From Blasia pusilla (Eukaryota), in the NCBI GenBank assembly GCA_050084515.1, contig CM114271.1:8494001-8558000 (forward strand): DNA of 64,000 nt. Reading direction: 5' to 3'. Under the pieces are notes generated by a model. The model saw only the letters and a list, made by a program, of their open reading frames with translations, had not been told where the DNA came from and did no database searches. The position numbers were made by a program, and so were the translations under genes. This document shows, one piece after another, positions 1 to 37,395 of this stretch (position 1 is its first letter; every line of letters begins with the position of its first letter).

Positions 1-15
1 CTTTAACACTTACGC

Positions 16-660
16 AACTCGTCGGACTCCGACGAGTTGCTCGATTGATGAATGGGTTAGGTTTTTTTTTGCTGAAAGCAACTCGTCGGAGTCCGACGGG
101 TTGCTCGACTCGACGCTTTTTCGGATGTTTTTTTAAGAATGTAACTCGTCGGACTCCGACGAGTTGTTCGATTGACCACAGATTTAATTAGTTTTTGGCC
201 CAAAGCAAACCGTCGGAGTCCGACGGGTTGCTCGACTCGCCGCCTTGTCAGGATGTTTTTTGAAGAATGCAACTCGTCGGACTTTGACGAGTTGTTCGAC
301 TGACTGCAGATTTAGAATTTTTTTTGCCCAAAGCAACCCGTCGGAGTACGACGGGTTGCTTGCTTCGAAACTTTTTTTGGCCGAAATCAACCCGTCGGAG
401 TCCGACGGGTTGCATTCGGAAGTTGGTTCCCCAAATTTCGCGTCAAATTGCAAGTTTCCATTCAATTGCGCAACCTGTCGGACTCCGATGCGTTGCTATG
501 TTCACGTTAGTATGTTCAGTTGCACAACCCGTCGAAGTCCGACGGGTTGAAACCAGGCATTAGCAAATCTGAACGCAATCCGTCGGACTCCAACGGGTTG
601 CATCATTTAGCTCGTTCCTAGAATCCGACCTTGAGTTGTGACGACTCCGACGGGTTGCAC
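16..660. repeat. Array of about 11 degenerate 25-bp palindromes (CAACYCGTCGGA-N-TCCGACGRGTTG) in intron 2 of copy A
   Basis: Copies start near 16, 79, 143, 207, 269, 334, 388, 471, 525 and 576, mostly spaced 55-65 bp apart. Confidence 0.9.
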
Positions 661-702
661 GAACCCATGTAATTTCCTGACGGGTTGAGTTTGGATGTGC
701 AG

Positions 703-3659
703 GATTGTATCGGAGGGGAATGTCATCCACCACTAGATCCATGACTGCGATCGGGTGAGGAAGATGCTTACGACGCACCTGAGAGAGTATAGGGGGTTCT
801 TGGGCGATGCCCTTGTCAATCAGATGCTTGCAAAGGGTGCTCAGATTAAAAAGAAAACTTGGGCAAATAAGTTTATTTCCCAAGATGCAACTGTAACCAT
901 CCTTTGCTGGTTGAAGATACAGGCCGCGAAGAAGAGCGCTGCACTGGAGCTGGAGCGGAGGGAGAAGGTATTTGCGTCTGAGCGCGCGAAATTCATCCAA
1001 GCTGTAGTATCTGCAGCAACAAAATATACGGCGAGCAAGATGCAGCGATACATCAGCATTCTCAACCCCGAACTTGGTCCGGAGTCCTACAAGGAGCTGA
1101 AGGCGATTATCAAGCGCCAGCGGAAAAGGGATGAAGATCCGCATGGTCGGATTGGGGAGAAAGTGTCCTTGGATCGCGTGCATCGGTTTGCGTTGTTCGG
1201 CATAAGCGAAGAGGATCTGACTGATGAAAATCAGTCTCGAGGGCACAAAGGCCCAGAAGAGGGCGGCACACCATCCTCCGGGTGTGTCCAATCCAGTGAT
1301 CTCCCACTGGCTACGCGAATGGTCGTTCTGGGACGCGTTGCGGGTTATCGGGAAGTCCGTGCTGGACGGTCTACAAGCGGAGCTCAGAAGATTAGAGCCC
1401 ATCCCGGATGAAGCAAACCTTGAAAGTTCTGGAGATTTCGAGGTTTGGCTCGACGACATCCGGACAAGCCAACCAAAACCCAGGATTCAAGACAATGTTC
1501 AAGGTTTGCGTCCTCCCTCAGCGAGCTTGACGAAGAAGTAGAGGGGAACAAACGGGATCAAGCAAAGAAGAAGCGAGATCTGAGCAGACGGCCGATGCGT
1601 TCGACTAAAAGCGCCCAACGGATGGTCTTGGTACCTCGTCCGTGTAAGAATGCAGTGCGTGGGGAAAATTACCGGCAGCCTTGAAATTGTGGGCTTCGCC
1701 GCCCAATGCAGAGACATTCTCCATGTACGACATGGAGATGGGGCAGCACATGTCCGATTGATAGATGGAGAATTTCCCCATTTGGCTCGACTTCAACGAC
1801 CCTGAAGACATCACTGATAAGGATTTACGAGTGCTTCATGATGCAGTGGCCTCAGGACAAGACGACATCCCCAATTTCGTGCAGCTTGAAGACTTCTTCG
1901 GAGGAGATGCAGAAGAGCAGGCCCACGAGACAGCTGAGTTGGCTTCCAAGGTCCGCACAACCAAAGACAAATCCACAGCGGGTCTCAAAGGCAACGCGAG
2001 GGGAGGGAAAAATTCAGAGGCCGAGTCTTCCCAAAGAGAGGCTGAAGATTCAAGGCCAGAGGCGGAATCTTCCGGGCAAGCGGGGAGAGAGGGTCGGACC
2101 ACGTCCTCGGCGAAAAAAACCCCACGAGAGTCTGAGGTCAAAGAGACCCTGACAAGCCGTCCGCAGACTCGGGAGAAGCGGAAGCGAGAGGTGCCAGGGT
2201 TGTCCCAAGGAGAATACAGTCCATCATCCTTGGGAAGACACAGACAAACAACGACCCGGACAAGCGTCCTCCTTCAGTTTCTCTCCTTTATTGGATGAGC
2301 TGAAGAGCTTCAGTTCTCAAGCGTCGATACCAGCCATCGATAAATTGACAACGCTGGGACGGAAGCTCCAACGAAACGGGCACGCTGCCTGGACGGTGAA
2401 CGGAGTGGTCAAAGAGGTTGCGGTGGATCTCTTGATCGCTAATCTGCCCTCGGGGTTGCGACTTTGGGGCGAGAATCCGTCGGACGAGGTACCTGAGTGG
2501 AATGTGCCGCTCTCTTATGACCCCATTGCGCTATTGTTCTCCTTTGCAGACGCCTATCTGAGTGAGAGGGGCTGCTTCTTGGTGTTGACTGGAGGGAGCG
2601 AGGACAAGCTCTTCAACCTCCAATGCGTCAAGAGGTCACTAAAGTGGAGGACGGCGCAATCGTGGATCATAAAAAATGAGTACCCACTCCGATCCGCGAC
2701 GAGTCAGATTCGGGTAAGGCTCAATTCCTGTACTATAATCTCAATTATATTTTAAAGATGCATATAATGAGTGTTCATCTCCGTTGAGTGAGTATAATGA
2801 GTGTCAATCTCCATTTTTTTTGTCCGTGAGCAACCCGTCGGAAGGCGACGGGTTGTTGGCTTACAACAGCCCATGCTCGGCTGAGAGCAACCCATCGGTT
2901 TCCGACGGGTTGCATCTTTCCCACATACACAGGGAAAACCGTGGTGTACCTGCAACCCGTCGGAACCTGACGGGTTGCAGTTGCTTTTGGTTTTTCCCTC
3001 TGTTTCCGGAAAGCTGCAACCCGTCGGAAGGCGACGGGTTGGTCCAGGATAAAACAACCCGTCGGACTCTGACATGTTGATCCAAAGTTAGTAATTGAAA
3101 ATGTTCTCAAGCCGACTTCTTTAGTTGCTGACATTGTTTCCAACGTGCTTATTTCTGAGATGGACCACTCCTCGTGTCTTTGGCCGTTCGCCCGAGCACA
3201 ATTTCGGTGTTCAAGATCCAGGATCCTGTGGATCCATGCTCGATGGGTACACTTAGATAGTTTGTACAATTCCCCGGAATTTACATGCAAAAACGATACC
3301 CTTCGGGAGGAAGGGAAAAGTCGCCAGCCCTGATGCAAACGCTCATCGAGCTCTGCTCAAGGCCAGGTGACTTGATGTTCGACTTAGTGGGACTTTCAGG
3401 GGCAAGTATCAAAGGCGCCTGGCAGAGTGGCAGGAACATTCTCTGCCTCGAGGGAAGGCAGGAACTGTTTGACCTTTGCAAGGAGGCAAAGGAAGAATAC
3501 GAAAGGCTCGTTGGGGCGTACAACTCTCCACCGAAGCCGAGAGCTCCGGTTCCAGACCCACCCTTGGTAGTGACTCCATTGTCACTTCCAACGATTCCAA
3601 AAATCGGGAGGGCAAGGCCAAAAGTAAATTTGCAAGAGCTCTCGGACGATGACGAGTGA
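703..3659 (+). pseudogene. Exons 3-4 of the ParB/amino-methyltransferase-like gene, copy A
   Basis: Acceptor TGCAG|G at 702/703, donor CGG|GTAAG at 2713/2714, acceptor GAG|ATG at 3159/3160. Motifs VDLLIANLPSG (about 2420-2455) and EKSPALMQTLIELCSRPGDLMFDLVGLSGASIKGAWQSGRNILCLE (about 3315-3450). Contains frameshifts and stops. Confidence 0.75.
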
Positions 3660-5272
3660 GTTCAAAGAACTCAACGACCCAGCTTGACTGCAGCGTTTGG
3701 AGTAGGGAGTTTTTTGATGATGAGGCAAAAGATTTCATAGAATAGATCAAATATACAGATTCGAGCTTTTTTCGGATGATATAAAGGAGAAGATTTTTTC
3801 GAACGATGGTGGTGCTTATAAAAGTTTGCTGAACATTTTTTGTCTTTTCGAATGTGATCGTCTATGAACTCCGCGGACTTCTATTTTGCAACCCATCGGA
3901 TTTCTCCTGCTTGCAACTTTTCACTTTTTGACCACTGCAACCCGTCGGATTTCTCCTACTTGCAACTTTTCACTTTTTGACCACTGCACCTTTTTACCAC
4001 TTCCAGGCAACCTGTCGGATTTCGACAGGTTGCCTGATCGGACTCTTTCTCTGTTGGTCCAACTTAAGAGGCAGTCTGGCGGGATTTTTCCCTTGGCACC
4101 TTCCCCTCGACCGTTATGGTGTACCTAGGGGGGGGCCAAGGCTCTCGAATTCACCAACATTTTCGATCCCCGTCTACAATCGGCCAGAGGAGCCACTTGT
4201 ATCCCAGGACATTCCTTTGGTACTGTCACCGAGGAGAGTTAGGAGTAAATTTGTAGATGATGAGGCTGAAGAAATCATAGACTAGGGCAAATGTACATTT
4301 CCGAGGTTCCTTCGGAGGTAATAAAGCACAAGATTTTTTCAACCCATAATGGTGTTTGTAAAAGTTTGCTAGAATATTTTTTTGGACTTGTGGATTGTGT
4401 TCTTTTAGCTACTCAGAATTACAATTCTGCAACCCGTATGATTCCGACGGGTTGCAACTTTTTGCTTTTTTGCCCATCGCAACTTTTTAACCATTTCAGG
4501 CAAGTGCCGGTTCGCGGAGTTCATTGCTTGAGTGATCGGACTCTTTCCTTGTGAGACCAACTTCTGACGCATTGTGGCGGGCTTCTTAACTTTTGGCTCG
4601 TTCCGCTACATTCGTAAAACCAGTTGTAGGCTTCTTTTCTTGTCTAAGATGCAGGATTCCTACTACCGTCGGATTGCCATTTCGGATTTCCAACTTTGTT
4701 AGATTGTCGTGGGTGCGGGGTGGAAGAAAATCACTTCTAAAAATCTTTCCTTTCTTATGGTGAGCTTTCTTATGGGTTGGGAGGGGTGCGGCTTCTCGGT
4801 TTCTCGACCTTAGGATCGATGTGTTTTCATTTCACAAAGTTGGTCTTGAGCAGACACCATTCATAACCAACAAAAAGTTGGTTATGGGGCAATTTAGGGA
4901 GGCCATGATGATGAGCAACAATCCTGCAAAAGAGAGGTTGGCATCCGGGTGGTCCTCCAAAAAAATACCAAAGTCTTGCTTTTTGTTGACCGAGACAGGG
5001 AATGTTAAGAAACTTAGGCTCACATTGAGAGTGATGGAAAAATGTTTGTAGTGGTCTTATGATGTCTCCTTTTTTTCCCTTGAGGAAAGAGGAGGTTTTT
5101 TTAGGGCCAAATGTGGACCACTAAATACTCTCTTCTAAAGATTTCCTGAATTTGAAAGCAAACAAAAATTTCAAATATGTCAAAAAGTTTTGAAGAGAGG
5201 AGGCGGATTTGGCCCTTTTTTTTTAAGAGAGACTCTCCTCTCTTACTCTCTCATGCCAGAATACCAGCCCCC

Positions 5273-5590
5273 GTTGTTCTTGGTACTACTCTTGGTGTTT
5301 TTGCTCCACATAGTTTTGTTGCTATAAGGCTCTTGTTCTCATATCTGCCTTCTTCTTGAAGCAAAGCTTTGCATAGTGATCCTTTATCCCACAGTAATTA
5401 CAAGATCCAGAAACCCTCTGTTGCTGACCTCGACCCCAACGATTTCCACCATCACTACCTTGTGATTGTGTCTGGTACTAGTTTGTAGTTGAGTGAGTGA
5501 CGTTATATTGAGTGCCTCTTCCTCCATATGCTTGATATCCACCATGACCATAGAAGTTTCTGCCATAACCCCTGCCTCAGTTTGATCCAT
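5273..5590 (-). mobile_element. Ty1/copia gag fragment (zinc-knuckle region), target of MULE copy A
   Basis: Reverse-complement match to about 7150-7470 of the downstream copia element. Confidence 0.8.
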
Positions 5591-5596
5591 CAATTG

Positions 5597-5690
5597 AGGT
5601 ACGTAAAGCATGCTAACAAGAGCAAGCGCCAAGTGAGATTCCAAGTGGGGGAACAAGTGTGGTTGAGTGTGAAGAATCTCACTCTTTCGA
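5597..5690 (+). mobile_element. Short fragment of chromovirus-type gypsy integrase C-terminal region
   Basis: RYVKHANKSKRQVRFQVGEQVWLSVKNLTL is nearly identical to the reverse complement of about 59775-59865. Confidence 0.8.
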
Positions 5691-5710
5691 CGAAGACCAT
5701 ATATGATTAA

Positions 5711-6023
5711 TATTGAAGATTCAGTTACAGCCAAGCTCATCATACACATGAACTGCTACATTTGGTACTCACACGAAGTAGGGAAACTTAATCTTGGTTA
5801 GTTATTTATGTGCAATTATCTTAACTAAGGTTAGTTAATCACAGTTAGTCTAACTTCAGACTATGGTTAAGATTAGGGTTAGGTTTTCTTATAGATACCC
5901 TATATAATTGAGAAGGGGACCAGCCTCCACTCATTCTCTCATTGCAAAATTTCATTCTCCATGGTGGTGTGTGAGTGTGAGAGCCGTTTCCCACTAGTTA
6001 TGCTTCTTTAGCAATTTTCTACA
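5711..6023 (+). repeat. Ty1/copia 5' LTR (about 313 bp)
   Basis: Runs TATTGAAG...CTACA, is followed immediately by a PBS, and is homologous to the solo LTR at 15764-16075. Confidence 0.85.
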
Positions 6024-6035
6024 TGGTATTAGAGC
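6024..6035 (+). promoter_or_regulatory. Primer-binding site, tRNA-iMet type (TGGTATTAGAGC, one mismatch to TGGTATCAGAGC)
   Basis: Directly follows the LTR-terminal CA. Confidence 0.85.
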
Positions 6036-6540
6036 GATAGGAGAACATCACTTGAAAATTTTGGTGTTTGAGGAGATAAGAGAGGCAAGAGAAGGAAAAT
6101 TTTCAGTTTGGGAGAAGGAAATTTCTTTCAGAGCTCAGTGGGTGCAGATTTCAGGTGGAGCTTTAACGATGATAAAACTTTGGAGGCTTTTTTGAGGCTT
6201 TCCCGGTCAATTTAGCCATCTGGATCCGCATTAGTTAGAACGATGCCAAAGAGTAGCTCTAGCGGTCTAGTAGAGCTTGTGGAGAGCTTTCTAACGCATC
6301 CAAAATTGCTAGATTATGACATTCTGAGCTACCGCAGTAGCAATTTCAGTGTAGGAAAGTGCAATTAGTGAAAAAAAAAGTTGTGGAATTTGCTTTTTAC
6401 AAGCCAATTTCGATGAGTTCTTTCATATAGTTGATCAATTTTGGAAAATTTCATGTTGATTTCTATTTAGGAGTGGTCTATGCTTCAATTGGAGCAGTGG
6501 GGAGTCTGAAGTTATATTTTTGTGAGTGAAATCGTTCGTC

Positions 6541-8974
6541 ATGGAGTATTCCTCAATAGCAATCACAAGAGAAGCTAGATAAGAAAAATTACAATGTCTC
6601 GAAGTTTCACATGAAACAATTTCTTATGGGTCAAGAAATATGGGAGCTTCTCACAAGTGATGAGGCCAAGCAAGAAGGTGAGTCAACAGACTTGAATGTT
6701 TACGCTTGGAACAAACGCGCAAGGCAAGTAATCCACTACATTTCAATAATGATCAGTTCGCCAATGATATGTCAAATTCAAGATGTTGATATTTCGAAGG
6801 AGGCTTGGGATGTATTGGAAAAGTTGTTCCAGACATCTACAAAGGCTATAAATTTTTAATTGAAACAACAATGGAATGAAGTGAGGAAAAGATCGTAGAG
6901 CATCAATGATTTGAATATGAGACATATTGTTGATCAATTGAATAGCATTGGAGTGAGAATAGAAGATGATGATCTGATTTTGTTCACTCTTCAAGGCCTT
7001 CCAACGGATTATAACTCCTTCAAAACCTCTTTCTCTCTGAGAGAGAAGTATCAAACCTGTCAAGAGTTTGTCCCATTGTTAATCAGTGAAAAGATGTGCC
7101 TGGTAGGTAGGAGTAGCTCGTCTAGTCTACGAGAGAGTGCATTATTTCCAAGTAATGGATCAAACAAAGGCAGGGGTCGAGGTAGCAGCTTTCTTGATCT
7201 TTGTAGATATCAAACATATGGAGGAAGAGGCACTCTATATAATGTCACTTAATCAACTACGAATCGATACCAGACACAATCACAAGGTGGTGATGGTGGA
7301 AACCATAAGGATCGAGGTCAGCAACAGAGGGTCTATGAATCTTACAATTATTGTGGGATAAAGGGTCACTATGCAAAGTTTTGCTTCAAGAAGAAGGCAG
7401 ATATGAGAACTAGAGCCTTACAGCAACAAACTATGTGGAGCAACTACACCAAGGGCAATACCAAGAACAACAACATTCACAAACTGAGCACCTCTTGGTC
7501 ATTACTCATCATATGGGAGCAATGGTCAAGAAAGACTCAACAGTAGATTGGTAAATTGACTTTGGTGCATCAAATCATATGGCATTGAGATCTAAACGGT
7601 TCAGTAGTATGGATCCGGTGAAAGATCTTGTAATTTTGCTCATAGGAGATGACACTTAGTATCATATGACGCATATTGGTAAAGTTCCAATGGCATCAAA
7701 TGATCTTTGTACTATAGGAAATGTTCTCTATGTTCCTACTATTGCAAGAAACTTGATCTCTGTAGGACAGATAGTAGAACAGGGTTATCAAGTGAAGTTT
7801 AACACAGATGGTTCTTTCATTGGAACAATGGATGACCATACTACGATCGCCAAAGGAACTAGATCTGGCAAAATGTTCAAATAAGATGTTTCTATGCTAG
7901 AGATTCAAACAATAATGTATGGTCAAATTGACCAACAAGTCACACATCTAAATGTGTGGCATAAGAGAATTGGACATATGAATCTTCAAATATTACAGAG
8001 TCTTTCATCATCTAATATACTAATAGGACTTCCTAAACTATCGAGTCCTCCTATGTTAGAGTTATGCCTTGCTTGCCAATTTGGAAAACAAGCTAGATTT
8101 CCATTTCCAAAGCAAGATAGAAGAGCATCCAAGATATTGGAGTTCATTCAGAGTGATGCGTGGACAACATCACAACATAGCCTCAGTGGTTTCCAATACT
8201 TTGTTTCATTTATTGATGACTTTTCTAGGTATATATGGGTATGCTTTCTGAAAGCCAAGTCAGAGGTATTCTCAATTTTCCAAACATTGAGAGTTCTAGT
8301 AGAGAAGCAAAGTGGAGAACACATTCTAAAATTGCATTGTGATGGAGGAGGAGAATATCTTTCAACAGATTTTGATGACGACTTACGTCAGAATGCCATT
8401 ACACTCCACAAAAAAATAGAGTGGTTGAGAGGAAGAATCAACATATTATTGAGGCGGCATGAGCTATGTTGAATGAGAAGAACATGCCTAAGGTGTATTG
8501 GGCAGAGGTTGTAGTATGTGCAGTCTTCTTACAAACCAAACTCTAACATCAAGAGTTCATGATAAGACTCCATTTGAAGTCATCATAAGAAGTAAACCTG
8601 ATTTTTCCTTCTTGAAAGTATTTGGTTGTATTTGTTATGCTCATGTTCTTTCTGAAAGACGTCAGAAATTAAACCCCAGATCTGAAAGATGTATATTCAT
8701 TGGCTACAGTGATGGAACTAAGGGATATAAGTGCTATATTCCATCCTCAAGGCAGCTAATTATTAGTCGTGATGTTATCTTTAATGAGCTAAAGTCATGG
8801 TATGCTCCATCTGAGCCTATTCCACCTCTAAACTCATCTATTGAGGGGAAGAATATGATTGTAAAAAAACAAACATTGCCTACAAATTCCCCAAGTACAA
8901 GTGCAGGATTAGGAGAGGTCCTAGATTCATCAATTAGATCTGTGAGTCCATGGATGGGAAGCGTATGTATTTAG
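6541..8974 (+). pseudogene. Ty1/copia gag-protease-integrase, degenerate and truncated before RT
   Basis: UBN2-like gag (KEAWDVLEKLF; LQGLPTDY), knuckle YCGIKGHYAKFC, protease IDFGASNHM, WHKRIGH, CLACQFGKQ, integrase FIDDFSRY and DGGGEY, then KVFGCICY...GYKCY. Copia domain order. Confidence 0.9.
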
Positions 8975-9061
8975 TTTGTTGACTCTAGTCAAAGCTCAAG
9001 TAAGGTGTCAGAGGCATCTACCTTTGAACAATAACTTTGTAGATCAAGTAGAGTCAATTGG

Positions 9062-10564
9062 TCTTTCCTCTTCCCCATTCTCGCAACCCGTATGAATCCG
9101 AGAGGTTGCAACTTGCATAGAATTAGACAAACTGAAAAATCTTTGGAATCAAACTTGTTGAACAAATCCCTTTATCCATCTAGGATATGAAAAAGATTCA
9201 TTATTTCTGCTCAGCTGATTAGAGTTCAAGCTCCTAGTGAACATTCTGGCCCTGCAAAGTACATTCTAACCCCTTCTGTTGCATCCTTAGAGTGGTTTGT
9301 TCAAGATAATTTGCACTTCTTTGAGGGAAAAAATTGGTTGGTGGATTCCTACTCCTACTTCCGACTCTCTTAAAAGTACAAGCAATACATAATACATCTG
9401 CTTACAAGGGAAATACCTTTTCCCAATTGTCTCTCTTTGGACAAATTCATTAAAGGAACATGTGGGAAAGCAACACATCTGTACCACACACACCCTTGCC
9501 ACACTTGAATTCAAAATATTGTTCCTAACCCAATACATCCTTCCTATTCCTTTGCCACTATGAAGATCTTTTGTAGCGATGATTTCCATGTTGGTCTCCC
9601 AAGCTGATGCGATTTGCTTTGCTCTCTCCATCGTTTGCCTACACATTATATTTCTCCTCACCCCATTTCTAGACTCAAACAAAAATAGTGGAGTGAGATC
9701 ATCCATCTTCTCTAGATACATGTTGACATCAATTTTGGGTTGGATCCGAAATGCGAAGGTCTTTGTAATGTGAACATGCTCCAAACTCCCTCCGTCTACG
9801 AGTCTAAAACGAGATAATTGTAAGATTGTCCACTTCCTCTTGAGTGCAATTAGTACCTATAGCAACGAGCCAAATCATGGGGATATTCCTTGGACCTCTA
9901 ATGGCAGTCAAATAAGACTTTTAGAAAGCGCATGATTCATTTATGTAGAAGAAGTACTTCAACTGATCTCCGGTTCTGGTAAAAAGATCAAAGGTTTTCA
10001 GCCCCCATAAGCCAAGTAGTGATCGTCAAGTCCTTGTAGAGTTCTTATTCAAGAAAGTGCCACATGCTCTTCTAATACCATCAGATCCTGCCTAGTCCAG
10101 GGATTGCTTCAAGAAATATGCCACCTCTCGAGGTTACAATCAACCTCAATGACCAAAATCCCATATTGTTGAACTTCCCTTGAGACTGTATGTTGGGAAG
10201 TTCCAACAACAGAGGAATTTTGAAATAAAACATTCAATAAGTAGGCAGAAGTTACTTCAACTCAAATTTGGGAGCAATCTGGTGTCTCCAAATACCTGGG
10301 TGCGGTAATTTCATCATCCAAATCAATCACTGGATTCTTTCCTCGATGTTGACACTTGACTTCCCCGAAGTCAATATACTTATATGGCCTCCAAGAGTTG
10401 TGCTCATAATGCTCTACCACCATCTGTATAGGATGTCTCAAAACACGCCCATGAATGTCCCCACCAATATGGACATCGTTCTCGAGAGGAGTTTTGGCTA
10501 CGCACCGATTGAAGGCTTCCACATACAATTTCTCATCCCCAAATCTCACAACGGCTCTAACATA
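9062..10564 (-). mobile_element. Older, diverged MULE copy D: 3' part of transposase including SWIM finger plus subterminal region
   Basis: ORF 9287-9784 (CFPTCS...FPCKQMYYV...ILNKPL*) and about 9950-10564 are homologous to 40150-41430 of copy B. Confidence 0.85.
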
Positions 10565-11149
10565 GGGGGCTGGTATTCTAGCAGGGGAGAGGAAGAGAGG
10601 AGAGTCTCTCTTCAAAAAAAAGGGCAGAATGAATTGACCAATAAGTAGCAATTTCATCTCAATGAAAGGTTCAAATAAAGACTCTAACTATGGTCCCAAT
10701 AGACTCATGTGCCCTTCAAGGTTTAACTTCTCTGAAGATGTGGTTGACATTATGGATTTTTGACTCTCCTCGCAAAAGGCATTAAATATCCCATCCGATC
10801 AATACTCATCCATGAGGGGGTTTTCCACAACAGAACAAATCACTCATCATTGATGGTAGCCAAAGACTTTCATGACATCATTGGATGATGTTGGCTCATG
10901 AATGGGTGCATAAAGTATACCATGGACTGTTGTGCGTTTGACAACTTAGTTTCACCATTCTCTCAGCCACTGAGAAATATATGCATCAAGAAGAAAATAT
11001 GACCAGACTGAGACGAAAATTGAACGAAAAGGCTCATAGTTGTCAAGAGTAAAGAGGAACCAATGCACCCATGTCCCTTCATTCAGACCCTGAATGTCAG
11101 AATCCGATAGGTTGCACCCCTTCCAACCCATCGAAATCCGACAAGTTGT

Positions 11150-11730
11150 AACTCTTGCAACCCGTCAGAATCCGATGGGTTGTACCCCTTGCAAGCAAGC
11201 ACACCACAACAAAAGAAAGATCTTGACAAGTGATTCCATTTCGCCCCGCATCCCATGAGAATTCGAGAGGTTGGGAATCCGATATGAGAATCCAACAGGT
11301 AGCAGGAATCCAATACGTCTCTGAAATATTGTGTTAGAGAAGAATGGTGTGACAATAATGGGGGAATGCGGAAAAAATGAAGAAGCCTGCTAGAATTCCC
11401 TAAAAAGTTGGACTAATAGGAAAAGAGTGGGATCACTCAAGCCGCCAACCTGTCGGAATCTGATGGGTTGCACCCCTTGCAAGCAAGCACACCACAACAA
11501 AAGAAGGATCTTGACAAGTTATTTCATTTTGCCCTACATCCCATGAGAATCCAACAGGTAGAAGGAATCCAACACGTCTCTGAAATACCGTGTTAGAGAA
11601 GAATGGTGTGACGATAATGGGGGAACGCGGAAAAAGTGAAAAAGCCTGCCAGAATGTTTGAAAAGTTGGACTAACAGGAAAAGAGTGGGATCACTCAAGC
11701 AGCCAACCTGTCGGAATCCGACAAGTTGCC
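11150..11730. repeat. Tandem duplication of about 290 bp containing palindromes
   Basis: GATGGGTTG(T/C)ACCCCTTGCAAGCAAGCACACC...GAAAAGAGTGGGATCACTCAAGC occurs twice, near 11174 and 11462. Confidence 0.8.
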
Positions 11731-12268
11731 TGAAAGGGGTTTAAAATATTGTGACAAGTTGCAACCCGTCGGAATCCGACTAGTTGCAAAAAAAGAGCCT
11801 CGAGTAGATAGACCAAAACAATCGACAAGAACAAAAAACAATTTAGAATTTTTTTACAAAAACCATCATGGTTCAAAAACTTCTTGTCCTTTATTACATT
11901 CGAGGGAAGCTTGGAAATGTACATTTGATCTAGTCTATGATTTCTTCAACCTTGTCATTTACAAATTTACTCCTAACTCTCCTAGGTTCTTGTACAAAAA
12001 GAATGTCTTGGGATATAAGTGGCTCCTCTGGTCGATTGTAGATGGGGATCGTAAATGTCGAGGAATTAAAGAGCCTTGGCCTTCCCGTAGGTACACCATA
12101 ACGGTCCCATGTAACATGATTTGAGTCCCAACGCCTTCCTCGACAATAAATCTTGTATGCTCTTCAAGGTGACACCCATCGAGTATCAATATGTGCTTCA
12201 TCCTTGGAAAGCATTAAATCCCTACTCCAAAATGCTTCAGTCAAGCTGGGTCCAATAAATCTTTGAAC

Positions 12269-12777
12269 TCACTCGTCATCGTCCGATAGCTCTTCCACAA
12301 TTACTCTCGGCTTTGCCCTCCCAATTTTCGGAATAAAAGGAAATGACGATGGTGTTACTATCAATGGTGGTTATGGAACTCGAGCTGTTGGCTTTGGAGG
12401 AGAGTTTTTTACTCCCACTAGCCTCTCGTAATCGGTCTCTGCCTCTTTGCAAAGGTCAAAAAGTTATGGCCTTCCCTCAAGGTAGAGAATGTTCCTGCCA
12501 CTATGCTAGGCGCCTCTGATACTCGCCCCTGATAGGTCCACTAAATCAAAGACTAGGTCACCCGACCTCAAGCATAGCTTGATGAGCGTTTGCATCAAGG
12601 CAGGTGACTTCTCCCTTCCTCCAAGTAAGGGGGTCCCGTCCTGCATGAAAATTCCGGGGGGGATTGTAGAGACTATCTAAGTTGTATCCATTGGAGCATG
12701 GATCCACTGGATCCGGGATCAGGAACACTTGGAAGTTGTGCTCGGGCCTTACAAAGCAGTAGAAAAATGAATGGTCC
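12269..12777 (-). pseudogene. MTase-like exon 4 of copy E
   Basis: Translates as DHSFFYCFVRPEHNFQ...GGREKSPALMQTLIKLCLRSGDLVFDLVDLSGASIRGA*HSGRNILYLEGR...ELSDDDE*. Confidence 0.8.
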
Positions 12778-14076
12778 TGTAATGTATTAGAAGTTTAGGA
12801 ATTGATATTTTTACAATAATTTTAATGAGTTCGAACCCCAAGAGGATCACGATTATGTGGAAACAGAGTTCAAGATGGCATTTATCTTGCAATAATTGTA
12901 GTTAAGTGTTTACAATTCGGATTCAATCACTTATCAATGTATTCTTCTCTCTCTTAGTACCAATAATTCTTTCCTCGATTCTCTCTAGTGGAATTGAATT
13001 CACGCTCAAGTAGATTTTCACTCAACATCAAAGAACCTCATAGAGACCTCAACAAGAAGCTGGCTTCTCCTACTTTTGGAACTCAATCCGTCTAGGCAGG
13101 CTACTCTCTGTCGAGCAGATTTCTTACAACTCAATGTTGATTATTCTAAGGATGAAAGTGTTCTCCTGATTCACTCTTCACTCTACAGACCCAATAAGAA
13201 TTCTCAGACATTGATATCGCACATCAGAATGAAGAAATGAGTGCTTTACTTCTCCATCAAGAATGAGAAAGCTTCAAAGTGTTATACAAGCTGGAGAGGG
13301 TACTACTCCCTTGCTCGGACCATTCCTACAGCATAAGGACTTCGTGAAAGAATGATGATGATAGCTACTTTCATGCTTCTTAAATATCTTCCAAGGGAGT
13401 AGTAGGTCCAAAGATCTGAAGCGTCTCTTACGAATCTATTGTCTATTGAGAATTTTTAACTACCTTGATCAACGGTTCTCTTATCTTTTCCTATGATCGC
13501 TATGAATCCGCTAGGCGTAACTGTCCTAACTTCCTATCTGGTCCAAAAAGTCACGCCTCTTCCTGGTCTAACTGTTCTAACAGTGTGTTTCTTGAAATCA
13601 CTTCGAGTCTTAGCTTTGCTTTGTTGCTAAGTCTGGACTTCTTCTTCTTCCCTTGAGGACAAAGCTCTTCCTAAGGACGAAGCTCTGCATTCTTCGCTCT
13701 TGTTCTAGGTGCTTCGTTCTTCGTGCTTCGCTGAAGAGCGAAGTACTTCTTTATCTTTGTCTTCATCATGCTGCGTTCAAGAGCAAAGCACTTCATTAAC
13801 AAGTTCTTAATAAGGCTTTGTTGTCTTTTTCAAGCTTCGCTCTTAGTCTTTAGACTTTGTTTCTGCATTTCCATCTCCTCTAAGGCAAATCCTTGATTCT
13901 CCACCTCTCTAACTTGTCATAGGAGCTTTGTGATCCATTTCAATATTACTCATTCTTCCAATTCACAAACATAATATCTAAAAAAATCTTATATGTACAA
14001 TCTTCAGTTCATAGAATCTATATTCCTTGAATCAAAATGTATAAATCTCTAAAAGTACAAAATTGTGGGTATCACA
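12778..14076 (-). repeat. 3' LTR of gypsy copy 1 (about 1.3 kb, TGTAAT...ATCACA)
   Basis: TG...CA termini. Near-identical to 22172-22605 and homologous to 57673-58966. A PPT (TGAGAGAGGGGG on the minus strand) lies at 14079-14090. Confidence 0.88.
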
Positions 14077-14149
14077 TACCCCCTCTCTCAATTATGAGCC
14101 GCCCTAGTGAATACTTTATGATGCATCATCTAAATCCATAAAGGTGTCT

Positions 14150-16280
14150 TCTAAGTTATCAAACTTAGTTGCAGGAGGAAAACGCCCATGAATCGTTAAA
14201 GGTTTTTTGATGATATTCGATGTGTGATTCTTCATTTTCTCTCGCACCATTTAATGACTACCATCAAATTTCCAAACACTTCGTTCTCAACGAGAACATC
14301 CGAGGGTGTAAACGAAGGAAGTTCTTGAAGATTAACTATATGAGTAGGTGTTACTTGCGGAAGAGACTTCATTTGATTATCGAACTGGCGCTCCCAATGT
14401 TTGTTGATATAGGCAATTTTTTTGTTCATTTGTTGTCCGAAGGTCATCCCTGCTTCGTCAAAAATTTCTTTCACATCTTCAGGGTCTAGCTGTACTTCAT
14501 TGAGAAGTTTTTGTTCTGCCTCCAAGATTGAGATCCTCCCTGTGGCCTCTGACAGTTGTGCGACTAAATCCGTATTAGTTTCCTATTGATCTTGAAGTAA
14601 CTTAGATATCCACGCGTTCTATGTTGCTACTTTCTTGAACTCGTGGTGGAGAAGATGCACTTGGTGTCGATATTGTTGAATCAACTGCGAAGCTTCCTTG
14701 ACTTGGGATATCAACTGATCCGCCCCTAACTCCATATTGATTGCCAAGCTTTCCCATTGTCGTGCATTTTAATATTCATATTGAGCTTGTACTAACTTGG
14801 TTTGAGCTCTACGAAGCATCATTTTAGTGTCTTCGACTTCTTGATTCTGAAGCTCGAGGTTTTTCTCCGCCACTCTTCGCTGTGCTTTGTTCTCTGACAA
14901 AGCTTGTGATCTACAATTCATATCATCAAGCGCTTGTAAATAGTGGTCCACCTCTGCTTCGTCGATAAGATGTAGTACTTGCTGGAGCTAGTTTATAACG
15001 GGAATGGCCAGATTAAGAAACCACACCATGTGCATTGCGGTCTATGTCATGCGACAAAGAGTAGGGGGCTCGTCGCTAGTGCGAGGAGTCTCGACCGAAT
15101 CCTCTTGGGGCGACGGGTCTATGTCTGACGGCGTCTCAAAATTTACCCTTCCACGTTTGGGTCTCGGAAGTTCAATTTGTGCTTCGTCTTTTCCTGAAGC
15201 CAAAGTATGGGGATGTATCTTGTGAATTGAGTCGCGGGTCGGGGTGACTTCACGGAGGGTAAAGTGTTGCCCGCCTTCAGTAAGCGTACTGGCCTCACTT
15301 GGTTCCAATCTAGCTCTTCATCAACTGTCAGTTCCTGCTTTTGAACATACAAGTGAATTAAAAATGGTGACAAGAAAGATTTGGTGCTCAGATAAAGGGC
15401 TTCGAGCATTGCGCATACATGTCCATCCAAGAATTTTGCGAAGTCAACACCTGGTGCTTCGGGGTCCAGATGTTGATTCCTGAGACGTAGCACATCTTAA
15501 CAAGCTTATTTGTCAAGTAATAAGAACGAGCAAGATAGAACAAGGTCATCAAATGCTCGCAAAACTGTCCAAACAAGGGGGGAGACAACGAAGTAGCCTT
15601 GTAGCCATTTCTGCCTAATCGGTCCGGCGTTACACAACCAAGTGTCAACAAGTCTTCGTGCTTTACCATCAAGTCAATGTCATACTCATACTCAGGAGCA
15701 GCAGGAAGTAGGGAAGTGGCTCGCCAATCATGTGTAGTCCAGTGTTGTGGCTAGGCTCGATACTATTGAAGATTAAGTTACAGTCAAGCTCATGAGACAC
15801 TTGAACTGCTACATTTGGCACTCACACGAAGTAGGGAAGCTTAATCTTGGTTAGTCATTTAAGCACGATTATCTTAACTAGGGTTAATTAATCACCATTA
15901 GTCTAACTTGAGACTATGGTTAAGGGTAGGGTTAGGGTTCCTTGTACATACCCTATATAATTGAGAAGAGGACCAGCCTCCACTTATTCTCTCATTGCAA
16001 ATTTTTTTCTCCATGGTGATGTGTGTGTGTGAGAGCCGTTTTCCACGAGTTATGCTTGTTTAGCAGTTTTCCACATATATCAGAATCCCCTCTTCGTGAA
16101 TCTTGCAGCTGCGCCTGAGGAGCGAAGCTCCCCTAGAAGCTCGCATGACGTCAATGTCCAATTTGATTAAAAGAATATCGCCACGGATTGTTCCTCGAGT
16201 GCTTCGATTAATTCGGGTGACAACTTTATGAGTGGCATGGCCGCACTTTGAAGGATGGGCGTTGCGTCTTCATGAGGCAT
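14150..16280 (-). pseudogene. Extra 3' ORF of gypsy copy 1 (coiled-coil rich), interrupted by a copia solo LTR
   Basis: ORF fragments 14232-14525, 14769-14951, 15042-15308, 15143-15493 and 15388-15672 match 25237-27116. Confidence 0.7.
15764..16075 (+). repeat. Ty1/copia solo LTR
   Basis: Homologous to 5711-6023 and absent at the equivalent site of gypsy copy 2 (about 26915). TSD is degenerate (GATAC/TATAT). Confidence 0.85.
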
Positions 16281-16339
16281 CGTGAATGTCGGGAGAAGTA
16301 CCCTCATGTTTGAGAATATCATGAGTTGCGGTTCATGAT

Positions 16340-19300
16340 ATTGTCAAACATGCATGCGATTGATTAGAGTGGGTAATGCTTCTCCGGTTAAGGTTTCCAA
16401 CTGCAGTGATCCATTGTCATATATTGCGATCACCCGATAGGATCCCATCTAGTTTAATTTTAGCTTCCCGGGAAACTTCAGCCGATGGTTATCATACAGC
16501 AACACCAGGTCCCCGATGTTGATGGATTGTGGCCGTAGATGTTGGTTGTATTGTTATTTATGTTCGTCTTTTACGCATTTGGTATGGCGTAGAGATAAGA
16601 CCCGTGCTTCCTCCAAGGCTACTAAGGTCTCATTTCTTGCGTGGAGAATTCCTGTGGCATCCTCCATTCTATTTCCCTCCAATACGAGATAAGTGGGCAG
16701 AGCCCATTCAATAGGGGTCAAAGGTTGAACTCCATAAGTAAGATAGAACGGGGTATACTTAGTAGTGACCTTCTCTGATGTTCGGTAGGCCCATAATGCC
16801 GCTAAGATTTTCACCTCCCAATGATAGGAATATGTAACCGTCAAGCGATTCAGTATCCGGCGGATCAGTCCGTTAGATGTTTTGGTTAACCCATTGGCTT
16901 TAGGGTTTTACGACGTGGTCTTCCGATGCTTGATTAAGAAGTGGGAAGTTAGGGACTCAATAGTCTTGTTCAAGAAGTGAGTGCCTTGATCACTTACTAA
17001 TTCCAATGGGCAACCATATTGAGTGAAAATTATTTCATATAAAAACTTGGCCACTGCCTCACGGTCATCTTTTCACATGGCCACCACCTCGACTATCTTG
17101 GTACAATATTCAGTGGCTATAAGGATATACTTCCACCTTGTTTGGCGGGTAGCGGGGGAAATAGGGCCCACAAAGTCAATACCCCATTTTTCAAAAGGGG
17201 CTAGCGGCATGATGGGTACCAAAGGCCACCGCGAGGTAGCGGTTGGTCGACCAACTCTTTGACAGGCATCACAACTCTGAATAAATTGGCCTACATCCTT
17301 GTACATGGTTGGCCACTAGTAACACGCGGCCAAGATTTTTTTTGATAGTGTTCTTGACGGCATAGTGTCCCCCAGAATCGGCCGCATGCATGGCCCTAAT
17401 AACGTGGGGAATTTTGTCTGTTTCCAAGCATCGTCAGTACTCTTCATCAGCACCTAATTTAAATAATACTCCCCGACACAACTCATATGGTCCTATCTTA
17501 TGTAAAAGGACTGCTCGTTCACCCACCGTCATAGGGGCTCGAAGTTGGAGGGTAATCAGAAAACGCAAAATATCTTCATGCAGGGATTGCCACAATCGGT
17601 CCTCAGTAATTTGGAACACGTCCTCGTCGGGGAAGGTATCATCCAAGGTCTGTGTAAGGTCCGCATTCGTCATCCGCAACCGGGATATGAAATTTGCGTT
17701 GGTATGGACCTTCCCTGCATGGGTAATTACATCAAATGTAAATTCCTGAAGTAACAAGATCCAATGCGCAATGCAACCTGAAAGGTCCGCCTTGACCATT
17801 AACGGTCGGAGTGCAAAATGGTCCATATGAAAGACAAACTCATACCCCAATAATGGCAAAACTTCTTGCCGTTCAGTAGTGGTATATTTCTATTCGACTG
17901 AAGATAGTTGTCGTCCTGCGTAAAAAATCGGATAATCGTGTTTGTTTTCATCAAGTTGGCTAAGCACCACCCCAATGGCAAACAACGATGTGTCCACATA
18001 CACCTGGAAGGGTTTCGTCCAGTCCGGGGACCAAAGTATGGGAGCTACAAGCAATGCTTGTTTCAATGTTGCAAATGCGACTTGGCAGGTTGGGATCCAT
18101 TCCCATTGGGTGGCCTTCTTAAGCAACGCGGTTAATGCTCATGCTTTTACCGCATAATCCTTAATGAACCGTCGATAGTATCTGACATGGCCCAGGAAGC
18201 CTCTCAATTCTCTGAGATTTGTGAGAGGTTCCAATGCTATAATAATATCTACTTTGGCCTTATCGACCTCAATTCCTTGGGCAGAAACTCGGTGTCCGAG
18301 CAAGATGCCTTGTCTCATAGCAATATATGATTTTTCAGGGTGGAGGGATAAATGCACTTTTCGGCATCGTGCCAAGGTTAATTCCAATTTTTGTAAATTC
18401 TCTACTGCTGTGCTGAAAATACAAAAGTCATCGAGGAAAATTTTGACAAACTTCCGCAGGTATCGTTGGAAGATAGAGATCATCATTCGCTAGAAGGTTT
18501 CCGCCACATTGCACAAACTAAACGACATTACTCGATACGTAAAGGTGCCCCAGTCCGTGGTGAAAGTCATTAGGGGCTGATCTTTCTCCCTAATGGATAC
18601 TTGGTTATACCTAGAGTACCTGTCCAAAAATGTATAACGATCGTGACCAGCAACTTTATCCAAAATACTGTCGGTGAAGGGTAGGGGATGATGGTCCTTC
18701 AAGGTGGCCACATTCAATTTCCGATAATCTTGGCACACCCTAATTTTCCCGGTTTTTTTCTTGGGTATAATTACAATGGGAGAAACCCACTCGCTACTTA
18801 ACAGGGGTTAAATTATTCCTACTTCTAGACGTTGGTCAATTTTGTCCTTGACCAACAACGAGTATTTAGGATTGAGGCGATACTGCCTCATCCGCACCTG
18901 GATAGCGCATGCTTTAAGATCGCTTTGGTATTCACCATACTGTGTTGGAATGCATGTCATTTCATCCATGGAATATGCAAACACATCCAAGTACTCAAGC
19001 AATAAGTTTTTCTACTTAGTGAGTTCTGTAGGAGACAATTTTGCCAATAGGCGTAAGGACTTCTGACTCGTGACTGGGACCTGTACATAGTCCTTTTCCT
19101 AAACCATATTTTCTGTAAATTGGAATGTGCTATGGCCTAGCTTTTCTTCCTCTTGGGTCAACCTCTGTTCCCTAGAGGCTGACTCTTCTTCAATTTCACT
19201 CTAAATAATATACGGTAGATGAGGACTAGGTAGCTGTGGTTTGATCTTGGTCTGAGGTATAGCCCTTATCAGTCAAGGGCGTTTCTCCTTGAGATAGTTG

Positions 19301-19870
19301 TGATTTCCATGAAAGCTTGATGAGTCTTTTTGGGACCAGGTCCGGAGCTTGGAATGTGAACCGTCTCCTTTTCCAGTCGGTGGTCACTCATGCACCATAG
19401 AGCCAGAGCCTTCCAATCAGCAAGGGATATCCCGTGGCCATCAAGGGTTGCAACACTAAGTAATCCAGTAGAAATAAGACATCTCCCAGCATCATTGGAA
19501 TCTGAGTGAGCTATCCAAGGGGTCACTTCCGGGACTGATTTGCAAACCGTAGATATTTGTCGATGCGCTCGTACCTTGTGTACCCCAATGCATGGGCTGT
19601 CTATTCATAATATTAATTCCAGTCCCAGAGTCAATGGGGACCTTCTTAATGGTGTGTCCCTTGATCTCAACTTCTACCTCTGGGGCTCCCAAATCTTCTA
19701 CTTCGATACAGAACAAATCCACTAGTGGTAGACTCTTTGAGAACTTCTTGGGTTTCCTTCGGTGACTTCGGTCGAAGGCAAGGTCAACATCTCCTTTGAG
19801 AATGGCCTTCTCGACGCGGAAGGTGTCAATCTTTTTCTTCTTGGGGTCTTTGTCTTTGTGCAAAGACGAA
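16340..19870 (-). pseudogene. Gypsy pol (PR, RT, RNase H, integrase), copy 1
   Basis: VPIDSG protease, CQDYRKLN and IFLDDFCIF RT, YVDTS RNase H, CDACQR, WGIDFVGP and ALWAYRT integrase. Confidence 0.9.
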
Positions 19871-19899
19871 GCCCCTTTTCTCGTTTTGGTTGTCCGAGC

Positions 19900-21720
19900 G
19901 GTTTGGGTCTTGGACCTCGTTGTGACAGCAAGAATTTCATTATGGAGTTCCTTGGGCCAGTCCGATGATTATTTGGGTGCCGTTGTGTTGGAGTCCTCGT
20001 CCTTGATGGTGACTTGCCTTGTCTTGGGGGACCCTAACTCTTCCACTCGAACGAGTTGCACATTTACTTCATTCTTGGAGTGTGTTTGGGCTGTTGGGGT
20101 GTTTACATACTTGACCAACAACTGCGGGACCTTGGGCTCCGGGCACTCGAGTGTAGTGTGCCCGCCCTTATTGCAATTCTTGCACAACGAATTGAGTCCT
20201 TCTGACCTCTTGGGATTTGGGCAATTATTGGCCCTATGGTCAGCTGCCCCACAATTTTAACAACAATTCCTTTTTATGGGTGGCGTGAAGGCTGTAGAGC
20301 CCATAATCTGTCTCAGGGGTCTCTGTTCCCCGTATTCCGGAGGCACATACCTTGGGATCCAACTTCATCCGGGATTAGGGGTTGGCATGGCTTGAATTGC
20401 ATAGCAACCTTCCCATTGTTTGGCTTCATACCACCCTTCTTCCATAGTTGGATCTTCCTGGATCCAACGTAGATCCCTCAGAAGGTGGCACTCCAAGGCA
20501 GTGTGCCCTTGGCTTCCATAGGTACTGCACCATATGTTGGGCCTCATCAGACCTGGTCTTCTTTTGGGGTCCTTCTAGGCCGCCAGATGTACTTTCAACT
20601 CCACCATTTTTTTACTTAACTCTTCAATGGCAGGCTTGCCTGCCTTCCTCGCGATCCCTCGTACTGGACTTATAGACCTCTGGGGGACCTACTTTGTTGG
20701 CATGGTTTTTCGTCTATGCTGGGGAGAGAGGTGGCGGGTGCTTTTTTTCTTCCGTTTGGATTTTAGATCTTCGGAGTCTGAGGGCCCCGTGGTGCCATCG
20801 GTGGAGGCTTCGGTGTCTGTAGAGGACGCTTCGTCCTCGGAGGGTGAACTAGTGTGCGACGAACCTCGCCGTTGATGACGCCGTCTTCGCATTTTGTGGG
20901 ACTTCTCGGAGGCCTTGTACGCCTCTGTTGATGCAATGATTTCTTCTAGGGAATCTTGTTGGCCTTGGCGGCAGTACCGGTCCATTTCCTTGGACAGTCC
21001 CGACACAAACCAATCTACCAACTGTGAGGTAGTTGTGAGTTCAAGTTTGTTTACGAGGCTTCGGAATCTTTGGGTGTATTCCCTAAGAGTTTCCTTCTTT
21101 TTACGTTTTAGATCATGAAGCTTCGTCAGAAGCCTGTCCTCGAACTCCAAGTCACAAAACTCATGAAGAAAGGCCTCCAGTACCCTCTTCGAGGTTTTAG
21201 TGACTTCCGCTCCCAAGCCCTCGTACCACTGGCTTGCTCGCTTCTTTAGCAGGACGGGAAATACTCGCAGCAAATCTTCCTCTAAGCCTTCTCCATTAGC
21301 CTTAGCTACATGGGTAAACTTGAGCACAAAGTTGTCAACATCATCTCTTCGTCCTCCCGCAAACGTGGTATATCTTAGCAGTGTCTTCCTATAATTAGCT
21401 ATCGGGAAATTTTGGCTACTAGGTCCCGGACTTGATGTTTGGGAAGGAGGAGATAGAGGGTCCGATCTAGTTGGTCTAGCCGGCCCCTCGTCCCCCTCAT
21501 CTCCAAAGGGATTCCAGGTTGACTCTTCATCCGGCTGCGAAGTGGCAAGAGACGTGTTGGGGAGCGAACTCCTATCCCTCTTTTTGCTCTTCGGCTTTGT
21601 TTGAGGACAAAGACTGGGAGATGCTCCCGGCGGTCTCCAAGACGGATGATCTTCTTGTTGCTTACTACGTCGGTCAGCTCGCTGATCTCAAGCGGATGGC
21701 CGGAAGGCTTCCCTGAGTCC
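19900..21720 (-). pseudogene. Gypsy gag with CCHC knuckles, copy 1
   Basis: ORF 20689-21327 (ASQWY...ETLREYTQRF) and knuckles such as CKNCNKGGHTTLEC. Confidence 0.85.
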
Positions 21721-21798
21721 CTCTTGGGATTCATGAGCTTGGTTGCGCACCCATGACTACTATAGGGTATCGATCTATGGAGAGAAAGTTGAGTCATC

Positions 21799-22128
21799 CT
21801 AATTCCTCTGGAAGTGTGAATGTGCTCTCAATCTACTTGCCAGGTTTTCCTCCCATAAACAAAAGTATCGGGTCATCACCAAGTACAATTGACGTTCATG
21901 GGTGAAGCAACGTTCGGCAACGGGTTCTTTGACAATACTAATTAACTGTTCTATCTTCTCTAGTACTAATGCAGCAAAAAGATTGCTATCCTGTTCCATC
22001 CATTGTCTTAGGGGAATAGCTAGAGATAGGAGATGATCTTCAGTGAGAACTAGATGGTTAGGCCTCCTAGGCAACGAGGCTTTTTCCCCGGGCCTGGGGT
22101 TACCCATCATCCTCTCTCTTTCCAGCAA
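21799..22128 (-). CDS. Short 5' extra ORF upstream of gag, function unknown
   Basis: Protein-level conservation with 57330-57605 (RRPNHLVL.ED.LLSL.IPLRQWM...ERQLYLVMTRYFCLWEENLA). Confidence 0.5.
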   Translation of the reverse strand: MLERERMMGNPRPGEKASLPRRPNHLVLTEDHLLSLAIPLRQWMEQDSNLFAALVLEKIEQLISIVKEPVAERCFTHERQLYLVMTRYFCLWEENLASRLRAHSHFQRN

Positions 22129-22138
22129 ATCTTATGAT

Positions 22139-22155: not shown

Positions 22156-22171
22156 AGAGTTTGTTGCTATA

Positions 22172-37350: not shown

Positions 37351-37395
37351 TAAATATTCTCATTCTCAGTCTCCTCCCGTTGGAATCTTCTTGGA

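Follow-up and report, generated by a model that had tools for sequence, protein, structure and literature searches.

Palindrome arrays in the non-coding compartments of a Mutator-like transposon family of Blasia pusilla: predicted binding sites for an element-encoded protein

A palindrome restricted to one transposon family

The 64,000-nt window of Blasia pusilla DNA analysed in this study, to which all coordinates refer, contains at least six copies (A–F, delimited by self-BLAST) of one DNA-transposon family, most likely a Mutator-superfamily element of ~12 kb with a putative transposase gene and an accessory gene, gene 1. The copies carry a palindrome, CAACCCGTCG-N5-CGACGGGTTG, which is present in every non-coding compartment of the element longer than ~300 bp: two introns of gene 1, the transposase intron, the intergenic region and both subterminal regions. 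The palindrome is about 25–27 bp in length and consists of two 10–11-nt arms, GCAACCCGTCG and CGACGGGTTGC, on either side of a variable 5-nt centre; the consensus derived from 78 sites is GCAACCCGTCGGAnTCCGACGGGTTGC.

When both strands of the whole window were scanned with the pattern CAACCCGTCGGAnnnCGACGGGTTG, allowing up to three mismatches, 139 strand-hits were obtained, compared with an expectation of 0.01 from 100 shuffles, none of which reached 139. Half-sites, defined as 10 nt with at most one mismatch, number 147, whereas about 2.3 are expected by mononucleotide shuffling, and all but one of them (146/147) fall within copies of the family, which occupies 33.1 kb of the window. The palindrome was not seen in the retrotransposon remainder (5273–10551, 12778–29745 and 56092–64000), which is made up of nested copia and gypsy debris with broken gag, integrase, reverse transcriptase and RNase H open reading frames (ORFs). 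A scan of metagenomes for the exact palindrome core returned 16 contigs (L001–L016), several of them from gut metagenome assemblies, each with one site and none with an array; these are probably unrelated bacterial hairpins. In the literature, the motif string gave only primer-type coincidences by title among the matches listed, and, judged from such listings, no published account of the palindrome or the element was found, including accounts of Mutator elements of Marchantia or Riccia and of transposon-encoded methyltransferases.

The distribution over compartments is clearest in copy B, the full-length element. Its coding sequence (7,113 bp) contains none of the 52 half-sites, its introns (1,471 bp in total) 33 of them and the remaining non-coding DNA (3,500 bp) 19. 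The intronic half-sites are divided among intron 3 (ten) and intron 2 (nine) of gene 1 and the transposase intron (14), with none in the 73-nt intron 1; the others lie between the two start codons, a stretch of 1.3 kb (14), in the left non-coding region (four) and in the right (one). In copies A and C as well, the position lists contain no half-site or palindrome in an exon. As tandem copies are not independent, the odds were taken at the level of clusters: non-coding DNA makes up 41% of the element, and the probability of all seven clusters of copy B falling outside the coding sequence is ~0.002 by hand arithmetic. The original prediction had placed the palindromes in introns, with none in exons and none in the short intron 1. 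The absence from exons and from intron 1 is borne out, the exon and intron densities being far from equal (0 versus 33 half-sites), whereas specificity for introns is not, as the largest arrays are intergenic (36473–37178 in copy B and 49561–50221 in copy C). These intergenic arrays, together with single sites ~200 bp from the right end in copies B and C and with the motif in the gene-less copy F, indicate that the motif marks the non-coding DNA of the element and not introns as such.

The palindromes are arrayed in tandem at periods of 64 bp in intron 2, 67/132 bp in the intergenic region and 35/70 bp in the transposase intron, and whole repeat units have been gained or lost between copies, so that the number of units varies. 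The intergenic region of copy B (36101–37395), between the divergent start codons, contains eight palindromes with GC-rich spacers; in copy C, arrays are found at 44998–45317, 47461–47981, 49561–50221 and 52438–52708. The loops are specific to the array (GAGTC/GACTC, GAAGG/GAAAC/GAACC, GAGAC, GAAAC and GAATC) and occur in both orientations, even in a single array. Spacer identity to the homologous array in other copies is 0.67–0.92, whereas between compartments it is 0.39–0.61, with a shuffled control at 0.53. The spacers thus differ between arrays, as had been proposed, with identity between compartments at background, and the presence of one palindrome among unrelated spacers means that the palindrome, and not the repeat unit, is what the arrays have in common. 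The loop was also considered as a GANTC methylase site, and this was rejected because it fits the intron 2 and subterminal arrays only; the loops GAAGG, GAAAC and GAGAC do not fit.

Copies, genes and putative introns of the element

Copy B (29748–41841, + strand; 12,094 bp) is inserted in a gypsy element and is flanked by the 9-bp duplication CAAAAAGAT. Copy C (42614–54055, + strand; 11,442 bp) lies in the same gypsy element, ~770 bp from the B insertion, with the duplication GTCACTCTC, and is missing ~630 bp from the 3' portion of its transposase gene. Copy F (55494–56090, + strand) is a 597-bp gene-less derivative which retains the family termini, a 9-bp duplication (CTTCAATTC), palindromes at 55671 and 55866 and a half-site at 55778. 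Copy A (1–5272, + strand) is cut by the start of the window inside intron 2 and ends in an element terminus at ~5272 (...CCAGAATACCAGCCCCC); self-BLAST and a three-way alignment showed it to be the reverse of copy B from 34732 to 29749 and of copy C from 47980 to 42656, with 85–90% identity. Two fragments complete the set: D (9064–10551), which by self-BLAST is the reverse of copy B from 40157 to 41655, and E (10559–12777), which contains the left terminus and the 3' region of gene 1. Between them (9064–12777), palindromes are located at 9084, 11124, 11158, 11446, 11704 and 11762. At 10559, fragment D, a reversed right part of the element, directly adjoins fragment E, whose left terminus forms the junction. 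Fragment E has five subterminal palindromes with the loop GAATC, more than the matching region of copy B, as well as an internal duplication of ~288 bp (11158–11471 versus 11446–11729). Overall, the copies are 85–94% identical; copies B and C are 90.5–95% identical in each fully aligned compartment and 98% identical in the partly aligned right terminal region.

Target-site duplications of 9 bp were found at all three insertions for which both flanks are visible (B, C and F) by setting the flanks against an uninterrupted gypsy copy (18590–18660). All three copies interrupt one gypsy element, of which an uninterrupted relative is located at 16325–22600, and as each has its own duplication they represent three separate insertions. 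A tandem duplication giving rise to B and C is ruled out by their different duplications and their different positions in the one gypsy element. Copies B, C and F share the same orientation within this gypsy element (27445–58092), with insertion points within ~2 kb of gypsy sequence, which suggests local hopping or a target preference.

A 9-bp target-site duplication (range 8–11) is the hallmark of Mutator transposons, and the assignment of the element to this superfamily is based on the duplications together with a lead from the transposase. The termini, GGGGGCTGG.../GGGGGCTGGTATTC... and ...CGCACCTC, are weakly inverted (seven of the 11 terminal nucleotides, read by eye); beyond ~11 nt there are GA-rich low-complexity inverted stretches, and long terminal inverted repeats were not found.

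The transposase gene of copy B (37396–41417, end approximate; + strand) starts with an ATG at 37396 and is decayed. A D...D...E core (FDICY, MADHAQ and GAESVH) and a C-terminal CxC...CxH can be recognized by eye. In an Atlas search with the copy C ORF 51221–52063, clusters of Mutator-like elements (MULEs) were reached at 0.93 with 163 shared features, a result rated as a distant relative or chance, and ten of the ten best family-bearing matches share a family or clan. There was no PDB sequence match and no NCBIfam match, and a word-index search found none among longer proteins. The MULE-like nature of the transposase is thus a lead, not proof. Pfam was scanned with 81 of the 184 ORFs of at least 90 amino acids, a set that included the element copies' long ORFs outside the arrays, and 13 of these were re-scanned at E values of up to 5.

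Gene 1 is divergent from the transposase gene, with its start ATG in copy B at 36100 on the − strand, and has four exons, which are read on the + strand in copy A and on the − strand in copies B and C. Exon 3 of copy A (703–2713, + strand) is decayed, with a TAG at ~734 and frameshifts, and contains no palindrome and no half-site. A HMMER search with the ORF at 2153–2752 matched six proteins, of which two are hypothetical proteins of Riccia fluitans (P0001; E = 6e-15) and Riccia sorocarpa (P0002; E = 2e-12) with 31–35% identity and two are short unnamed fragments; the remaining two, the bacterial surface proteins P0003 and P0004, align only to a low-complexity stretch; they were rejected as homologues and left out of the alignment. 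Exon 3 is colinear with the R. sorocarpa protein over ~1.7 kb (tblastn) and also with that of R. fluitans. With the gene 1 alignment, a word-index search returned no match of greater length and, among proteins of similar length, the R. sorocarpa protein alone.

Exon 3 is followed in copy A by the putative intron 3 (2714–3159, + strand), which runs from GTAAGG to TTTCTGAG and contains palindromes at 2831, 2888, 2953, 3017 and 3055. It joins the upstream frame ...SATSQIR, ending at 2713, to MDHS at the start of exon 4 (from 3160) in phase 0. The GT-AG ends, the restored frame and the approximately five palindromes that the original prediction had attributed to this segment were thus all recovered, and the further arrays that it had listed (16–660, 34600–34890, 47460–47985, intron 3 of copies B and C, and 39390–39930) are all present. 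Intron 2 of copy A (1–702, + strand), the first ~8 nt of which lie off the window, contains ten palindromes, which recur every ~64 bp and are separated by two spacers in alternation. In copy B, intron 3 (32044–32582, − strand) contains four palindromes, intron 2 (34588–34910, − strand) five and the transposase intron (39390–39930, + strand) seven, the last with the arm variant CAACCCGACG and the loop GAAAC.

The splice sites of these segments are largely the same in all copies. A, B and C share an identical donor at intron 3, CGG|GTAAGG; the acceptor of this intron, AG|ATG, retains AG in two of the three (A and C) and is AA in B. For intron 2, the acceptor TGTGCAG|G is found in all three copies and the donor AC|GTGAGT in both copies in which it is visible (B and C). 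The transposase intron (CAG|GTGAGT...TTGCAG|G, phase 0) joins ...WGNFMRQ to GLNVHENALRPNTSGAES; its donor is the same in B and C, and its acceptor is intact in one of the two, being mutated to TG in C. In addition, the two Riccia proteins both stop where the intron 3 donor lies (...SATKQFK|VTKT, with KQFK|V in one), which suggests an old intron at this site. Conserved splice sites, restored frames and the ends of the Riccia homologues all point to the array-bearing segments being spliceosomal introns.

It could be argued instead that these segments are not introns but gene-breaking insertions or expansions, the copies having spread as non-autonomous passengers. All of the copies seen are decayed, and two acceptors carry mutations, that of intron 3 in B and that of the transposase intron in C, as this explanation would allow. 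However, canonical in-phase GT-AG ends are present at all three segments with donors that are the same across copies, the borders of 2714–3159 show neither duplications nor inverted ends, and proteins only 31–35% identical end at the very donor. Moreover, differences by codon position in the flanking exons show a third-position excess (49/45/74 for A versus C and 54/56/82 for A versus B), which indicates that the frames were under coding selection during the divergence of the older lineages, and the arrays are already present in all three copies. This explanation is consequently very improbable.

Exon 4 of copy A (3160–3657, + strand) has a frameshift near 3299 and a weak match to motif I of amino-methyltransferases (PGDLMFDLVGLSG). 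Compared with the Pfam family N6_N4_Mtase (PF01555), the match lies in the region of the S-adenosylmethionine-binding motif I (FxGxG), with an E value of 8.3e-4 and a score of 19.8 bits, below the 26.7-bit cut-off; weaker matches were obtained to M.RsrI (E = 0.02) and, with E = 0.12 in both cases, to DpnA and a DNA methyltransferase of NCBIfam. For the upstream exon, an Atlas search gave methyltransferase neighbours at 0.87, whereas the upstream half of gene 1 is not recognized by Pfam, PDB or NCBIfam, a PDB profile search being empty. The catalytic motif IV, (D/N/S)PP(Y/F), was not found at the aligned position, which reads NLPS in A and DLPS in B, so that the element has VDLLIADLPS where beta-class enzymes have DPPY; the homologues have DLPK and DLPT (Riccia), DIPN and DVPE. 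An AlphaFold model of the C-terminal ORF of exon 3 was unusable (mean predicted local distance difference test score of 37.9). Tentatively, the domain is probably methyltransferase-like without the catalytic motif, and intron 3 interrupts it, as its two halves sit on either side of 2714–3159.

At 3656, a perfect donor-like GTGAGT overlaps the gene 1 stop codon. Two modules that resemble each other lie downstream (region 3650–4460). A short acidic ORF closes each of them (...FFDDEAKDFIE* and ...KFVDDEAEEIID*), and beyond it there is again similar sequence and then half-sites or palindromes; these modules may be further or alternative 3' exons.

Binding sites, minisatellites or hairpins

We lean towards the view that the arrays are clustered DNA binding sites for a protein encoded by the element, as in VANDAL21 with VANC or Spm with TnpA. 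The palindrome would be a cis-element of the transposon family that has been multiplied, together with its local spacer, by tandem duplication in several compartments. The arrays would act at the DNA level, as dense two-fold-symmetric sites for a dimeric element-encoded protein. The reader may be the transposase or else the methyltransferase-like accessory protein, and through its binding cognate copies would become marked for transcriptional activation, anti-silencing or assembly of the transposition complex. What speaks for such sites is the restriction of the motif to the family, its pattern over the compartments, the sharing of the palindrome among unrelated spacers, the tandem build of the arrays with gain and loss of whole units, the single sites near the right end and the retention of the motif in the gene-less copy F. 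The Mutator features, the conserved splice sites of the array-bearing introns and the precedents of VANDAL21 and Spm are in keeping with this view. Between A and C, moreover, the arms are conserved at 0.90–0.92 and the spacers at 0.84, with p = 0.05 or 0.002 depending on the copy that defines the arms, although the arms are CpG-rich.

Several observations weigh against predicted binding sites. All copies in the window are decayed, and between B and C the differences by codon position (30/29/35) show no periodicity, which implies that these two copies have decayed neutrally since the older divergence. The avoidance of coding sequence is expected from purifying selection for any expanding repeat. 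The outermost ~100 bp of the element are GA-rich and without a palindrome, whereas the classical Mutator transposase site sits in the terminal repeat. No match to Pfam, including MULE (PF10551), was obtained with eight transposase ORFs at E values of up to 5. The arms are no better conserved than the spacers between B and C (0.942 versus 0.933; p = 0.72), so that any constraint on the motif is visible only in the comparison of A with B/C, which carries an ascertainment bias as arms were chosen by closeness to the consensus. Finally, compensated double changes in the stem number 15, compared with 7.9 in shuffles and reached by 3/500 of these, an excess that fits a hairpin no less than the symmetry of a dimer site and can arise from the relatedness of units alone.

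The decay of the copies is visible in the coding parts as very dense 1–2-bp insertions and deletions (29748–54055); in exon 3, 43 of the 46 gap runs between B and C shift the frame. These could also be long-read assembly errors, in which case the copies would be less broken than they appear. In copy B the observed/expected CpG ratio is 1.01–1.28 in the intergenic region, in the introns with arrays and in exons 1 and 3, against 0.4–0.8 elsewhere, so that CpG depletion is patchy although the copy is decayed.

A rival view is that the arrays are functionless palindromic minisatellites, derived from a subterminal hairpin-prone repeat that was spread to further non-coding parts by ectopic repair or gene conversion, grew by replication slippage and persists only where coding sequence is left intact. 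The arrays are tandem and vary in unit number between copies, the arms show no extra conservation between B and C, most motif variants represent one-sided C-to-T or G-to-A decay, and the avoidance of coding sequence would follow trivially from selection on the genes. However, the seven clusters of copy B share the same 25-nt palindrome in unrelated flanks, which would need an unexplained copying of the palindrome only; the arms exceed the spacers in conservation between the older lineages A and C; and the motif has been kept in the 597-bp copy F, where little else of the interior remains. We regard neutral minisatellites as a serious but rather unlikely explanation. Whatever the role of the arrays, seven clusters with only the palindrome in common raise the question of how unrelated flanks come to acquire a 25-nt site.

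A palindrome in transcribed DNA may also act as an RNA hairpin, as the original prediction had allowed. Such hairpins might influence splicing or stability as intronic stem-loops or serve as small-RNA precursors. The unit folds as an 11-bp stem at −17 to −20 kcal/mol (z-scores of −4.9 to −6.6), intron 3 (2714–3159) folds at −187 kcal/mol compared with −121 kcal/mol for shuffles (z = −10.9), three arrays are located in putative introns and there is the slight excess of compensated stem changes. The strong folding of intron 3, however, is expected for any palindrome array, the largest arrays lie between the start codons, sites occur in the gene-less copy F and near the termini, and loops are found in both orientations within a single array. 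Stem mismatches on the sense strand comprise 26 G.U and 20 A.C (p = 0.46), so that pairing in RNA has no advantage over that of the opposite strand, and Rfam gave no matches at gathering scores across the whole window. The alternative thus found no support in the mismatch counts; RNA hairpins are unlikely here, and less likely than DNA binding sites.

Comparison with known transposon systems

Among transposons with a regulator acting on its own family, VANDAL21 (Hiun) of Arabidopsis is close in layout to the Blasia element. Both are Mutator-type with a transposase and an accessory gene, both have a family-specific tandem motif in introns, upstream of the transposase gene and in terminal regions that is scarce in coding sequence, and related copies of either element differ by the gain or loss of repeat units. 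According to Hosaka et al. (2017; PMC5735166), VANC21 binds a 9-nt asymmetric motif present as dense arrays of one orientation in the introns and the intergenic and terminal non-coding regions of VANDAL21, these arrays evolve by gain and loss of tandem repeats in the introns of VANB and VANC and upstream of VANA, and both the binding of VANC21 and the loss of methylation have been demonstrated. The Blasia motif, in contrast, is a 25–27-bp palindrome of two 10–11-nt half-sites, the accessory protein is methyltransferase-like and the host is bryophyte-like. The short imperfect ends of the element, which lack long terminal inverted repeats (TIRs), resemble those of non-TIR MULEs. Non-TIR MULEs include VANDAL, the accessory proteins of which carry DUF1985 when of the VANC type, and no VANC-type family was among the Pfam matches of the 81 window ORFs. 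The proposed analogy to VANDAL and VANC is therefore supported by the layout of the motif, the 9-bp duplications and the MULE-like transposase lead, but not by a VANC-type ORF.

En/Spm offers a second parallel, in which the element-encoded regulator TnpA acts on dense clusters of a motif of its own family, some in inverted pairs, whereas the reader of the Blasia palindrome is predicted. The classic TnpA motif is 12 bp in length and occurs in direct and inverted orientation. The clusters of En/Spm are subterminal, whereas the Blasia arrays are also spread through the interior. En/Spm, as a CACTA element, has CACTA termini and 3-bp duplications; membership of the Blasia element in this group was rejected on the basis of its termini (GGGGGCTGG... 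and ...CGCACCTC) and its 9-bp duplications. The binding of TnpA to dense motif clusters in Spm is described in a preprint (bioRxiv 10.64898/2026.08.24.746577), which also states that a Mutator transposase itself can activate cognate copies. With MuDR/MURA the Blasia element shares the 9-bp duplications, a MULE-like transposase (as a lead) and an organization of two divergent or convergent genes in one element; classical MuDR has long TIRs, however, which the Blasia element lacks, and by Pfam, in which it has no match, the Blasia accessory gene shows no relationship to mudrB.

The accessory protein may further be compared with the beta-class N6-adenine/N4-cytosine methyltransferases (PF01555, for example M.RsrI), which typically read short palindromes. 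The order of the domain fits this class, with the motif IV-like part upstream and the motif I-like part downstream, whereas (D/N/S)PP(Y/F) is replaced by DLPS/NLPS in the Blasia element and by DLPK/DLPT in Riccia, and the scores are below the family thresholds. That this protein reads the palindromes, as a captured restriction-modification-type fold serving either as an inactive anti-silencing factor or as an N4-cytosine/N6-adenine marker that keeps silencing by 5-methylcytosine off, is a speculative extension to which we give little credence. If it were the palindrome reader, the element would represent a second, independently evolved VANC-like system, with a possible link to the N4-cytosine methyltransferases (MpDN4MT1) that liverworts use in sperm, according to a preprint (bioRxiv 10.1101/2021.02.12.428880).

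In conclusion, transposon systems in which an element-encoded protein protects or activates its own family have so far been worked out experimentally in flowering plants, with VANC on VANDAL21 and TnpA on Spm. The Blasia element has the same architecture, in which one family-specific motif is multiplied in all of the larger non-coding compartments, and departs from these systems in three respects: a liverwort-like host, a palindromic site and an unrelated accessory gene whose named homologues are confined to Riccia. Should the predicted binding hold true, the element would offer a defined 25-bp site with two candidate proteins, and its arrangement of cis-sites would be an old feature of Mutator elements or one that arose in them convergently.

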